DNA of 43,274 nucleotides from the NCBI GenBank assembly GCA_964400475.1, contig CAYNTH010000005.1, positions 11,064-54,337 of the forward strand, written 5' to 3'. Below the pieces are notes generated by a model. The model was not told the DNA's origin, searched no databases, and saw nothing but the letters and a program-made list of their open reading frames with translations. A program made the translations under genes and the position numbers. Within the stretch, counting starts at the first letter, position 1, and every line of letters begins with the position of its first letter. This stretch comes from an uncultured archaeon. GTDB taxonomy: Archaea > Aenigmatarchaeota > Aenigmatarchaeia > CG10238-14 > SCSR01. Positions 9,393-13,017 of the stretch are shown piece by piece.

Positions 9393-10019
9393 TCACTTCA
9401 ATACCTTGCCGGTCTCCATGTACCATAGATACAAATCTAGTTCGGCTAGGCTAAGTCCTGTCTTGTCCGCCAACTCGGCCAATACACTTTCTATACGCAT
9501 GTACCGACTGGGTGTAAGCGTTTTCGGCCTGTCTATGATTCCGTGCCTCACCAACAGGTCGATTATGTGGAAGTCTATTATTGCCAGGTTCTTGAATCCT
9601 ATGTTGCGCAGGAAGTGGCTCGATTCCTTGTATCCGAGCCCCTTTACATTCTTTGCCAGCCAATGCCTTAAATCGGCCTCTGACTCGAATTTCTCTATAT
9701 TCTCCTTCACAGAATCTTTGTGCTCCCTTGCCTCAACGATATAACCAGCACGTGCATTCGGGAATCTGTGGCCGAATTCCCTGAGCTTCTCCACCAATTC
9801 GTCCTCCGGCAGTTCGCAGTATCCATCATCTATCTCGGACTGCATCTTGATACTGCGCTCCGCATTGAAATTGGCCGTGGTTATGCAGAAACAGAGTTCT
9901 TTGAATATTGAACTGTTGTCCATATTACCGAGTCCCTCGAATTCATTCATACGCTCTTCTATCGTTTCCGCGATCTCCGAATCCTTAAGTTCCTCTATAT
10001 CACTAACCAACTGGTCCAT
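9393..10019 (-). CDS. ogg: 8-oxoguanine DNA glycosylase/AP lyase (archaeal/Thermotoga OGG type)
   Basis: ELCFCITTAN, GHRFPNARA, KGLGYKESSHFLRNIG, AIIDFHI and DLYLWYMETGKVLK. Confidence 0.93.
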   Translation of the reverse strand: MDQLVSDIEELKDSEIAETIEERMNEFEGLGNMDNSSIFKELCFCITTANFNAERSIKMQSEIDDGYCELPEDELVEKLREFGHRFPNARAGYIVEAREHKDSVKENIEKFESEADLRHWLAKNVKGLGYKESSHFLRNIGFKNLAIIDFHIIDLLVRHGIIDRPKTLTPSRYMRIESVLAELADKTGLSLAELDLYLWYMETGKVLK

Positions 10020-10054
10020 TACACTTATTAGAGTCTCCAATCTTAAAAATATTC

Positions 10055-10456
10055 ATGAGATTGTGGTCCATACACCCGAAATACCTGGACAGTAAGGGAC
10101 TTGTTGCGGTTTGGAGGGAGGCACTGCTTGCGCAGAAGGTGCTGGAAGGAAAGACGAAGGGATATAGGAACCACCCGGAACTCGATAGATTCAAATCGCA
10201 CGAGCATCCACTTGCGGCAATAGGCAAATATCTGGAATACATACACGATGAATCATTGGAGCGTTCATACGAGTTCGATTACGGTAAGATTTTGGTGCAC
10301 AAAGAGGTTGAGAAGATAAAAATAAGCGAAGATCGTGTCGAATTCGAGGTCGAACACATGAAAGATAAGCTCAGAAAAAGGGATAAAACCAAATATGGGG
10401 AATTGTGTGATGAAAATGGTGTGGAATTGAACGAAATTTTCGTGATTTCGGAGTAA
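10055..10456 (+). CDS. Pyrimidine-dimer DNA glycosylase / endonuclease V-like protein
   Basis: MRLWSIHPKYLD.KGLVAVWREALLAQ.VL.G.TKGY.NHP.L.RF signature. Confidence 0.88.
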   Translation: MRLWSIHPKYLDSKGLVAVWREALLAQKVLEGKTKGYRNHPELDRFKSHEHPLAAIGKYLEYIHDESLERSYEFDYGKILVHKEVEKIKISEDRVEFEVEHMKDKLRKRDKTKYGELCDENGVELNEIFVISE

Positions 10457-10540
10457 AATGCCCTTTTTAAGTGTTTTGTCACATGATAAAGCATTTTTAT
10501 AGTGGAAGAGTATTAACAAGTATACTCAAAGTGATTTAAC

Positions 10541-10741
10541 ATGAAAACAGATCTAATAGACAAAATAGCATTAGCTCTGGTTGTAATCGGAGGATTGAAT
10601 TGGGGATTGGTCGGATTGATGAATTTCAATCTGGTAACATCCCTATTCGGTTCGATAATGTATCTTGATACAATCGTTTACAGCCTAGTAGGACTTTCAG
10701 CTTTGTGGGTAGCTTACTATCTTTCACAAATGATGAAATAA
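10541..10741 (+). CDS. DUF378 small membrane protein
   Basis: LVVIGGLNWGLVG..FNLV..LFG and IVY.LVGLSA. Confidence 0.9.
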   Translation: MKTDLIDKIALALVVIGGLNWGLVGLMNFNLVTSLFGSIMYLDTIVYSLVGLSALWVAYYLSQMMK

Positions 10742-10843
10742 AGGCTATCTGCGGGTTGAAATTTTACACATCCTTTCTTTTTCTTTCTTTTTTTAAATAG
10801 TATTGATATTTATGAAAAAATCAGAAATCAATCATATTTAATA

Positions 10844-11332
10844 TCATCCGAAATAATTGAGATTCTCAGTTTCTATGTCACCTACCATCTCTATCTGCCC
10901 GTATGTCTCCGGTTTTCCGTAATTGATCTTACTTATATCGGAAAAGACGGCACTTATACCATATTTGGCTATTTTCGTTGCAGTATGTTCAGTTCCAAAC
11001 GCCTTTTCCGAGATGGAATGTGTCAACATCTTCGTCTCATGTTCGTTCAGGTGACCCAGGGAATGTATGTATTCGTGGAGAAGTACATGGAATACGTATG
11101 AATTTATCAAATCCTTATTACCAGAATCCAGCACTTTTTGGAGCAGTGATTTGTTCATCACTATGAAATTGGATCCGACCTGATAATAAGCGCCTATCTG
11201 GTCCGGTAAGTGAGATAACCCCAATATTATGCCCGCGCGCCTCTTGTTGGTAATGGATTTCACAGCATCCTTGACCAATTTGAATATCTCCTCAAAATCC
11301 GAACATTTTTCCAATTTTTCAACAAAATCCAT
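10844..11332 (-). CDS. Putative zincin metallopeptidase
   Basis: HVLLHEYIHSLG (HExxH) followed by E..T. Family recalled from other archaea. Confidence 0.6.
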   Translation of the reverse strand: MDFVEKLEKCSDFEEIFKLVKDAVKSITNKRRAGIILGLSHLPDQIGAYYQVGSNFIVMNKSLLQKVLDSGNKDLINSYVFHVLLHEYIHSLGHLNEHETKMLTHSISEKAFGTEHTATKIAKYGISAVFSDISKINYGKPETYGQIEMVGDIETENLNYFG

Positions 11333-11404
11333 AGTAATCAATTTTTAGTTTATATACACACTAACCATATATTTAAAACTTGTGTCTATAATGAAAAGGA
11401 AGGG

Positions 11405-12022
11405 TCACTTTTCGCTCACACGATTAAAACGCCTGTTCACTTCTTCCCAATCCAATATTTTCCAGAAAGCGTCTATGTATTTACCCCTATCATTCCTGTA
11501 ATCCACATAATATGCATGTTCCCACACATCCAACACCATCAATATATCCAATGAAGGCACCATATTCTGGTTGTGTTTTTCTATTTGCATTATGATCGGT
11601 CTTTTGGACAACTTATCGAATGCCAGAACAGCCCAGCCAGAACCCTCAACCGATTTGGCGGCTGACGAGAATTCCTTTTTGAATTTGTCGATATCACCAT
11701 ATTCCACCTTAATGGCATCGAATATATCGTCTGTTGGCGCATTATCTTCTGCATTTTCCACAACTGGTTTTAGATTCTTCCAAAACATGGAATGAAGTAT
11801 ATGACCAGCGAGATTGAATGAAAACGCCTTCAAAGTGGCCTTCATATCAATTTCTTCCCCATTATTGCGAGCATCTTCCATTTCCCGGAGTATGTTGTTG
11901 GAATTATTAACATATCCCTGATGGTGACGGTCGTGGTGTATAGTCAACTGCTCCTCGGACATATGTGGTTCCAGTGCGTCTTTTTCAAATCCAAGTTCGG
12001 GTAAAGTATATTTTTCTACCAT
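11405..12022 (-). CDS. sod: Fe/Mn superoxide dismutase
   Basis: LEPHMS, HHDRHHQGYV, GHILHSMFW, GSGW and DVWEHAYY. Confidence 0.97.
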   Translation of the reverse strand: MVEKYTLPELGFEKDALEPHMSEEQLTIHHDRHHQGYVNNSNNILREMEDARNNGEEIDMKATLKAFSFNLAGHILHSMFWKNLKPVVENAEDNAPTDDIFDAIKVEYGDIDKFKKEFSSAAKSVEGSGWAVLAFDKLSKRPIIMQIEKHNQNMVPSLDILMVLDVWEHAYYVDYRNDRGKYIDAFWKILDWEEVNRRFNRVSEK

Positions 12023-12086
12023 TATTCATCCCCCTTTAACGATTATCGGAATATACATAACATCAAATTATAAGTAAAAAAGGTTC

Positions 12087-12149
12087 TCAGCATTCGCATG
12101 GAGAACATCCGCACACATTACATTCACTGGTTTTACATCCGCAACCCAT
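12087..12149 (-). CDS. Metallothionein-like 20-aa peptide MGCGCKTSECNVCGCSPCEC
   Basis: Hand translation gives 7 Cys in CxC/CxxC spacing. SD-like GGGATGA lies upstream and a T6 tract follows the stop. Same strand as the flanking ferritin-like gene and sod. Confidence 0.65.
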   Translation of the reverse strand: MGCGCKTSECNVCGCSPCEC

Positions 12150-12194
12150 ATATTTCATCCCATATAACTAAAAAATTGGGTGCTAGTGCACCAT

Positions 12195-12476
12195 CTATTT
12201 AGAAAGTTCTTCAACTTCTTCCCTGCCCTCTTCCAGCTCGTCAACGTACTCGCTGTCCATCTCCATCAAAAGAGCCTGGAACTCACCAACATGAGTCTTC
12301 TCCTCCCTGGCTATGTCCATGAGTATTGTCTTGAGTTTTTCGTTGCTAGCTGCAGCAGCAAGCTGCTCGTACAGGTTGATAGCGTCCAATTCGGCTATTA
12401 AACCCAATCTGGCTATCTCGAAGTCCTTCTTCTCATCATCGACCTTATCCAGGTCAATTGGGAATTTAGCTAACAT
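12195..12476 (-). CDS. Ferritin-like protein (encapsulin-associated Flp/EncFtn type)
   Basis: IAELDAINLYEQ...IAREEKTHVGEF...EG.EEV.EL closely matches the ferritin-like domain recalled from Thermococcales encapsulin fusions. Confidence 0.85.
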   Translation of the reverse strand: MLAKFPIDLDKVDDEKKDFEIARLGLIAELDAINLYEQLAAAASNEKLKTILMDIAREEKTHVGEFQALLMEMDSEYVDELEEGREEVEELSK

Positions 12477-12645
12477 TTAATCACCATTATAAATTATGGG
12501 TCAATCAATAATTACTTACGCAATATAACCATTTATGATAAACTAATTATAACACTGTTATAATTTAAATATTGTGGTGGTTCATTTCCTGTGCAATTTT
12601 ATCACTGGACAATCCTTAAATTTTTGTAGAACAATATTATTTGTG

Positions 12646-13017
12646 ATGAATACAAAAAATCTGACCCCTGAGGATATAAAGAGGTTCAAGAACATGAGCA
12701 GACTGGAGAAGATATCGATATATTTGATGGACGCTCTCCCGGTTTACGCACTCAACGGAGATATGTTCCTGGAACCGGAATCTGTCAGTTTGAACAGGGT
12801 AAACATATCCATCATGGAGTCACTCGAAGAGGAGAAGAGAATAGCACAGCGCAAATACGAGGAATACGTGAGTAAATACGGCAAATGTGAAATAGGTCCC
12901 AGTGAATTCGCAAGATATTTCAGGAGATGTTACAGGGACGGATTATTGAATGAAACCGAAATGGACGTGGATACAGCGGACGTAGTATCTGACACTCAAT
13001 ACTTTCTAAGCATTTAA
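12646..13017 (+). CDS. Hypothetical protein
   Basis: ORF with host-like codon usage; no motif recognised. Confidence 0.55.
   Translation: MNTKNLTPEDIKRFKNMSRLEKISIYLMDALPVYALNGDMFLEPESVSLNRVNISIMESLEEEKRIAQRKYEEYVSKYGKCEIGPSEFARYFRRCYRDGLLNETEMDVDTADVVSDTQYFLSI

Follow-up and report, generated by a model that had tools for sequence, protein, structure and literature searches.

We describe a small open reading frame (ORF) in the genome of an uncultured archaeon which, judging from the conservation of its reading frame in related genomes, is very probably a real protein-coding micro-gene overlooked by gene callers. The ORF lies at positions 12,087 to 12,149 of the window, by which we mean the whole stretch of 43,274 nucleotides of DNA that was analysed. 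For what it encodes, we give about an even chance to a minimal thionein-type peptide of 20 residues, seven of which are Cys. An earlier sequence-only reading of the window had proposed a metallothionein-like gene at this place, and its ORF is reproduced here with the same position, strand (minus), length (20 aa), number of Cys (7) and number of aromatic residues (zero). That reading had also described the ORF as co-oriented with its two neighbours, correctly so: the EncFtn-like ferritin gene, the small ORF and the superoxide dismutase gene (sod) are all on the minus strand. The ORF, the signals around it and these two neighbours are the following.

12195..12476, minus strand: stand-alone EncFtn-like half-ferritin, 93 aa (PF22277, E 1e-08, 35.2 bits against a cut-off of 27; Rubrerythrin, 1e-06)
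12170..12192, minus strand: terminator-like hairpin GGTGCACTAGCACC (12192-12179), then CAA, then T6 (12175-12170), located after the EncFtn-like stop and ahead of the small ORF
12155..12161, minus strand: GGGATGA, weakly Shine-Dalgarno-like, 5 nt upstream of the start at 12149; includes the alternative ATG at 12158-12156
12087..12149, minus strand: candidate thionein-type small ORF, 20 codons plus TGA, translating to MGCGCKTSECNVCGCSPCEC
12076..12081, minus strand: T6 run, likely an archaeal oligo-T terminator, between the small ORF and sod
11405..12022, minus strand: Fe/Mn superoxide dismutase (PF02777, 5.9e-33; PF00081, 9.2e-30), the downstream neighbour

On the minus strand the ORF starts with ATG at 12149-12147 and ends with TGA at 12089-12087, and 7 of the 20 residues of its peptide are Cys, with no aromatic residue and no His. 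Oligo-T runs act as transcription terminators in archaea, and the T6 run that had been noted after the stop is indeed there, at 12081-12076, 5 nt past the TGA. This run and an AT-rich spacer of 64 nt lie ahead of sod, which, on this arrangement, is probably a transcription unit of its own. The motif GGGATGA, earlier described as Shine-Dalgarno (SD)-like, is present 5 nt before the ATG but is weak as an SD: it precedes 1 of 570 long ORFs against 0.6 expected. The motif enriched before the long ORFs of the window's genome is GGTGA (31 occurrences against 5.5 expected). The 3' end of the 16S rRNA, ending in GGATCACCTCC, was found in this genome, and by inspection GGGATGA is able to pair with its anti-SD sequence at 6 of 7 bases. 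The alternative in-frame ATG upstream, at 12158, would add MKY to give a peptide of 23 aa (MKYMGCGC...). Terminator-like sites number 2 against 0.3 expected, both of them being one palindrome seen on the two strands, and the hairpin with its T6 run is missing from the corresponding gaps in the two other genomes of the genus (9 nt in G001 and 22 nt in G002). The sequence-only reading makes no mention of this hairpin. A promoter for the small ORF could not be placed in the window.

The DNA of the window is present in sequencing runs labelled as microbial mat metagenome, and no RNA run was listed among them. In four DNA runs from one microbial-mat study there is a single population variant, at 12177, and the ORF itself is without variants. 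The variant, T>C on the plus strand, occurs in runs X1 and X3 and lies in the spacer just before the T6 run.

Taken by itself, the Cys-rich frame is within chance in the window's genome (G000; 649,330 bases in 15 contigs, 88% complete). This genome contains 8,551 ORFs of 15–60 aa, of which 9 are Cys-rich (five or more Cys that make up 20% or more of the residues); apart from the present ORF, most of these are rich in hydrophobic and aromatic residues. Ten simulations with an order-2 Markov model gave 0–4 Cys-rich ORFs each, with a mean of 1.2, and an ORF with 6–8 Cys arose in 7 of the 10. Consequently, the case for a real gene must rest on comparison with other genomes.

Among 61 related genomes searched at the DNA level, both remaining members of the genus matched the 3' portion of the ORF, and all three genus genomes (G000, G001 and G002) carry a small ORF just downstream of the EncFtn-like gene. 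The encoded peptides are MGCGCKTSECNVCGCSPCEC in G000, MGCGCCDKKKVCKACGCSPCEC in G001 and MECKCKNCNCSPCEC in G002, with 20, 22 and 15 codons, i.e., 60, 66 and 45 nt before the stop, and therefore all indels are in frame. In the codon alignment of G000 with G001, the differences at four codons (three Cys and one Pro) are synonymous, and five other codons differ non-synonymously, every one of them at a non-Cys linker position. The C-terminus CSPCEC-stop is invariant across the genus. The last 27 nt of the ORF are identical at 21–25 positions within the genus, compared to 68–71% identity for the EncFtn-like coding sequence, and the gaps separating the EncFtn-like gene from the small ORF (45 nt in G000, 9 nt in G001 and 22 nt in G002) are not alignable. 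A canonical SD precedes the ATG of MGC or MEC in G001 and G002 (GAGGTGAT and GAGGTGA). Since G001 permits no other start and the SDs of G001 and G002 are canonical, the 20-codon reading in the window is supported. The equivalent SD site in relatives reads GAGGTGA(T), AAGGAGG or AAAGGAG, and in four lineages a strong SD (GAGGTGAT, GAGGTGA, AAGGAGG and AAAGGAG) is found 5–8 nt before the ATG. Judged by these alignments, the conservation of the small ORF goes beyond chance. The sequence-only reading had suggested looking in the ferritin-adjacent DNA of relatives for conserved Cys positions with synonymous variation; the Cys-rich frame is conserved there in 3 of 3 genomes, with Cys codons that vary synonymously, and the conserved frame supports its proposal of a protein-coding micro-gene missed by gene callers.

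Outside the genus the peptide is rare. In a phylum sample of 371 genomes, the exact pattern CSPCEC-stop matched only the three genomes of the genus and gave no control matches. A relaxed pattern, CxCxPCxC-stop, matched 14 genomes of this sample against 6 control matches, and 10 of the 11 matches from outside the genus were judged, after translation, to be due to chance. The sole extra credible match is in G014, which belongs to a different genus of the same family and encodes MGRLADCKCRVCKCSPCKC from a GTG start. The ORF of G014 is at the syntenic site, flanked by Ogg and, on its other side, by a U32_C-like gene and a UMP kinase; the EncFtn-like gene was not found at this site or elsewhere in G014 with the query used, the genome being 85% complete. 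A profile built from six peptides recovered the same four genomes and one match in G128 that was rejected as due to chance, as it sits inside a 608-aa ORF. With 4 carriers among the 371 genomes of the phylum sample, the peptide family is tiny and patchily distributed. The U32_C-like gene is present in 60 of 70 family genomes, and 4 of the 30 such loci that were scanned contain the peptide, again in the same four genomes.

A stricter pattern, CxxCxCSPCEC-stop, was run on one genome per prokaryote species, on metagenome contigs and on a collection of viral contigs, the last of which gave no matches. Six loci were found in the prokaryote species genomes: two are the genus-mates, three (L028, L029 and L031) were rejected after translation as chance matches of the pattern, and one, L030, is in G371, a metagenome-assembled genome (MAG) of Woesearchaeota. 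The L030 member is an ORF of 30 aa with 10 Cys, including seven consecutive ones, and a strong SD, and its last eight residues are identical to those of G002. It forms part of a tight array at 484–2247 of this locus that consists of a PadR-family regulator, the Cys peptide, a 61-aa ORF that by reading looks membrane-spanning, and a class-V aminotransferase / cysteine desulfurase; the PadR-family regulator of this array has a Cys-rich C-terminal tail, and starts and stops overlap. Among 101 relatives of G371 one carries the peptide, a count which, like the L030 member and its context, depends on G371, a genome flagged as unpublished. Matches at L102–L104 were rejected as chance matches of the pattern.

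The metagenome contigs gave 20 loci. One of them (L050) is the G001-type sequence again, and three are on marine contigs (31–32% GC, one from TARA) that carry MAKCDNPNCKCENCTCSPCEC behind AAAGGAG, with one synonymous Ser difference. Fifteen were rejected as pentapeptide-repeat sequences, poly-Gln repeats or long ORFs in another frame, and one (L044) is doubtful, as its frame runs on beyond the motif. The marine ORF comes after a GFO/IDH/MocA oxidoreductase whose best named relative, at 70% identity, is from a SAR202 bacterium, and by this likeness the marine contigs are probably from SAR202. The archaeal origin assumed in the sequence-only reading may not hold for the whole family in view of these marine neighbours, and the peptide family may extend beyond archaea.

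Members beyond the genus end in CxCSPC(E/K)C-stop. Over the six distinct sequences, each conserved Cys is encoded by both TGT and TGC, Ser by codons of both Ser families (TCT, TCG, AGC and AGT) and Pro by CCA, CCT and CCG, and the stop is TGA, TAG or TAA at one shared position. The C-terminal agreement of the G014, L030 and marine members is partly by construction: all were found by patterns in which Cys and Pro at the C-terminus were obligatory, and the pattern that led to L030 and the marine members fixed Ser, Glu and the stop as well. The patterns did not impose the nearby start with its SD, the short length, the extra upstream Cys or the lack of aromatic residues. The likeness of the L030, L035 and G014 members may represent convergence of short Cys-rich frames. 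All members found are below, or exactly at, the 30-codon floor of gene callers.

Metallothioneins are defined operationally by low mass, about 30% Cys, absence of aromatic residues and His, CxC and CxxC arrangements of Cys, and formation of metal-thiolate clusters. The six distinct sequences are 15–30 residues long and contain 7/20, 8/22, 6/15, 6/19, 10/30 and 7/21 Cys, i.e., 32–40%. Phe, Trp, Tyr and His are absent from all six, and all six share ...CxxCxCSPCxC. The metallothionein-like composition that had been ascribed to the window peptide (Cys content, CxC/CxxC spacing, lack of aromatic residues) is consequently a property of every member, and His is lacking as well.

Searches for known families and structures gave no relative. 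Pfam at E≤10 yielded no family for the three peptides scanned, including the SmtA/BmtA and other metallothionein models, and NCBIfam at E≤10 likewise yielded none for the peptides. In the PDB, two chance matches were found by sequence, a knottin and a protease inhibitor (E 0.88 and 1.7), and no match at E≤10 by profile. A search of the ESM Atlas with the 30-aa member reached a best score of 0.77 and gave no lead.

The vertebrate metallothionein beta domain has the core CxCxxCxCxxC, and the same spacing is seen in the core CxCxxCxCxxCxC of the G002, G014 and marine members; unlike the beta domain, which has nine Cys, each peptide is one short segment, and homology between the two is not detectable. 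SmtA/BmtA and MymT are slightly longer than 50 residues, and SmtA makes use of His and has a zinc-finger-like fold. As candidate metal buffers, the peptides resemble SmtA/BmtA (Zn) and MymT (Cu) in being gene-encoded, prokaryotic and Cys-rich. They differ from SmtA/BmtA in that no ArsR/SmtB-type regulator adjoins the peptide; the G371 member comes after a PadR-family gene. According to a 2020 paper, SmtA and MymT were then the only bacterial metallothioneins that had been functionally studied (PMC7387436). The fungal family-8 Cu-metallothioneins of Neurospora crassa and Agaricus bisporus are described as having 26 aa and 7 Cys and as long considered the shortest metallothioneins (PMC4755600). 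The window peptide is like them in being a tiny single domain with 7 Cys, a start of the form X2-CXC, CxC pairs and no aromatic residues, and unlike them in ending on Cys, in being shorter (15–22 aa in the genus) and in having no sequence-family match. The hosts differ too, being archaeal and possibly bacterial in the present case. The likeness to the Neurospora type that had been noted for the window peptide does not extend to the positions of the Cys, which are X2-CXC-X4-C-X2-CXC-X2-CXC in the window compared to X2-CXC-X5-CXC-X3-CXC-X2-C-X3 in the fungal pattern (PMC4755600), and the patterns of the other members diverge even further.

The neighbours of the peptide differ among its carriers. 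In G001 the peptide is followed by GAGCC-T8 at the same offset and next by an opposite-strand gene. A T run is lacking in G002, where the ATG of a rubrerythrin that contains a RUBY_RBDX domain (8.3e-12) comes 15 nt past the stop. The sod gene adjoins the peptide solely in G000, not in G001, G002 or G014. Adjacency to the EncFtn-like gene is restricted to the genus, where it holds in 3 of 3 genomes, and the other two lineages (G371 and the marine contigs) have unrelated neighbours. The "ferritin + thionein + SOD module" envisaged in the sequence-only reading fails on this account, one half of it being found in G000 only and the other being specific to the genus. In the window, the small ORF belongs to a damage-response cluster in which ThiI, Ogg, a pyrimidine-dimer glycosylase, DUF378, a 165-aa ORF and SOD accompany it and the EncFtn-like gene.

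The EncFtn-like protein scores below the cut-offs of two NCBIfam encapsulin-cargo models (66.4 against 90 and 53.8 against 125), and the 88%-complete genome of the window gave no match to the encapsulin shell family (Linocin_M18, PF04454). A search for homologues of the EncFtn-like protein gave 7,429 matches at E≤1e-10, and the 120 matches listed are 91–123 aa long. Seven homologues, the six longest of the 120 (97–123 aa) among them, were read and show no Cys-rich tail or fusion. Of the 120 listed, only the homologue of 123 aa would have room for a tail, and its extension is instead N-terminal and hydrophobic. The protein is very strongly conserved, with 63–78% identity among the 120 listed of the 7,429 matches, whose sources include Woesearchaeota, Nanoarchaeota, Aenigmarchaeota, Patescibacteria, Omnitrophota, Marinimicrobia and Promethearchaeota. 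Directly behind the EncFtn-like gene, other genera have an ORF that reads as a desulfoferrodoxin (L007) or as MsrB (L011), or else convergent genes; this small ferritin-like gene appears to be recurrent in oxidative-stress arrays.

We regard the ORF as established, together with its composition, its protein-level conservation and its genomic contexts, and the interpretations considered here concern what the peptide does. One alternative to a thionein is an iron-centred partner, in which the peptide, with an Fe(Cys)4 centre like that of rubredoxin or desulforedoxin or with a small Fe-S cluster, would deliver electrons or iron to the stand-alone EncFtn-like ferroxidase and to rubrerythrin, amounting to a split mini-rubrerythrin. 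The genomic contexts speak for it: the peptide follows the EncFtn-like gene at 9, 22 or 45 nt in all three genus genomes, it is flanked by the EncFtn-like gene and rubrerythrin in the tight array of G002, it shares an array with a class-V aminotransferase / cysteine desulfurase in G371, and in another genus the EncFtn-like gene is followed by desulfoferrodoxin (named by reading the translation). No encapsulin shell was found in the window's genome, so the EncFtn-like protein would not be a storage cargo here. Like the rubredoxin-like domain of rubrerythrin or desulforedoxin, the peptide would be a small, Cys-only candidate metal site beside di-iron four-helix proteins. However, the peptide occurs without an EncFtn-like gene in G371, on the marine contigs and in G014 (not found there, at 85% completeness), and 6–10 Cys per 15–30 residues far exceed the need of one Fe(Cys)4 site. 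Rubredoxin and desulforedoxin have four Cys and two separated CxxC knuckles, an arrangement that the peptide does not have. The rubredoxin-type Pfam models are unmatched at E≤10, although the same search method detects RUBY_RBDX in the G002 rubrerythrin, and the lack of a Cys-rich tail in the 7 EncFtn-like homologues read among the 120 listed leaves no evidence of a fusion. We consider this alternative unlikely, though it deserves to be taken seriously. We think it decidedly improbable that the ORF is non-functional, either as a chance Cys-rich frame within a conserved non-coding element or as a recent untranslated ORF in the window's genome. The frequency of ORFs with 6–8 Cys in simulated genomes (7 of 10), the weak SD and the hairpin with T6 upstream of the ORF in the window, and the patchy distribution could all be read in this way; they are opposed by indels that stay in frame, Cys and Pro codons whose changes are all synonymous, the occurrence of all three stops and of both Ser codon families at shared positions, canonical SDs in four lineages, and the lack of any RNA-family or structural cause seen for the conservation.

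A regulatory role of the ORF, as a Cys-rich leader at which ribosomes would stall when Cys-tRNA is scarce and which would thereby tune sod, rubrerythrin or cysteine desulfurase, is in our estimate highly unlikely. It gains most from the G371 member, whose seven consecutive Cys codons are in an ORF that overlaps the start of the next one in an array ending in cysteine desulfurase, and from G002, where the stop is only 15 nt ahead of the rubrerythrin ATG. The same idea does not fit G001, where the T8 run and then an opposite-strand gene follow, and therefore no downstream target is there to be regulated, or the window, where a T6 run comes after the stop; moreover, the invariant Ser, Pro and Glu/Lys and the fixed C-terminus suggest selection on the peptide rather than merely on its content of Cys codons. 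The peptide could also be the precursor of a modified or secreted product, i.e., a RiPP such as a chalkophore-like metal chelator, and its small size and Cys-rich C-terminal core are reminiscent of RiPP core peptides. This seems scarcely probable at all: no radical-SAM, YcaO, DUF692 or other maturase is present among the 14 Pfam-scanned neighbours within ~6 kb of the window peptide or in the contexts at L003, L030, L035 and L055, three members open with MGC or MEC and are without a leader, and the genomes are small (0.65 Mb for that of the window). The leader-peptide, RiPP and non-functional readings are all less likely than a thionein-type peptide.

As a thionein-type peptide, the apo-form would be unstructured, and the thiolates of its CxC and CxxC motifs would wrap around thiophilic metal ions to form a small metal-thiolate cluster. 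By analogy, each chain might bind a few Cu(I) ions or roughly two divalent ones, whether Zn, Cd or Fe(II). In a genome of ~0.65 Mb in which no P-type metal ATPase or HMA protein was detected, such a peptide would buffer soft metals in the cytosol, or act as a sink for them, at little cost, and its thiols could double as a sacrificial antioxidant. In the genus the peptide is encoded beside oxidative-stress genes (EncFtn-like, SOD or rubrerythrin). We infer its translation, its binding of metal, the identity of the metal and its physiological role. The window's 88%-complete genome gave no match to the HMA domain or to the P-type (E1-E2) ATPase, which are present in 13 of 14 and 14 of 14 control genomes, respectively; because of the incompleteness, the metal exporters are to be reported as not found rather than as absent. 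The weak SD-like motif, the upstream hairpin with T6, the patchy distribution and the lack of a family or structure match are points against the thionein interpretation. The neighbouring genes (EncFtn-like, rubrerythrin, Fe/Mn SOD and cysteine desulfurase) point to iron over Cu or Zn, and consequently an iron or electron-relay role stays alive beside a thionein.

Metallothioneins are well described in eukaryotes and a few bacteria, and neither the phrase "archaeal metallothionein" nor archaeal metallothioneins were found in the open-access papers and preprints that were searched. We propose tentatively, and with more doubt than confidence, that the peptides represent the first gene-encoded metallothionein family in archaea and the shortest known (15–22 residues), replacing metal efflux and possibly partnered with the EncFtn-like protein. 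If this is true, a gene of 45–66 nt would substitute for metal-efflux machinery in the reduced-genome cells of DPANN and in some marine bacteria, and a peptide wired to a stand-alone EncFtn-like ferroxidase in the genus may also serve as its iron or electron partner. A conserved thionein of 15–22 residues would lower the size limit of the metallothionein class, give insight into how ultra-small genomes cope with thiophilic metals and oxidants, and offer chemists a natural minimal metal-thiolate scaffold. It would also be a further case of functional genes under the 30-codon floor of gene callers.

Other genes around the ORF deserve a brief description. A 147-aa ORF at 12574–13017 (plus strand), divergent from the EncFtn-like gene, is without a Pfam match and is missing at the syntenic site of G014. 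The 165-aa ORF at 10844–11341 (minus strand), just downstream of sod, is also without a Pfam match; it contains an HExxH-like HEYIH followed by more His and Glu, and by this motif it may be an unclassified small zinc metallopeptidase. The cluster at 9393–12476, which includes Ogg (9393–10040, minus strand), a pyrimidine-dimer DNA glycosylase (Pyr_excise; 10055–10456, plus strand), the Fe/Mn SOD and the EncFtn-like gene, fits a mat habitat exposed to light and oxygen.
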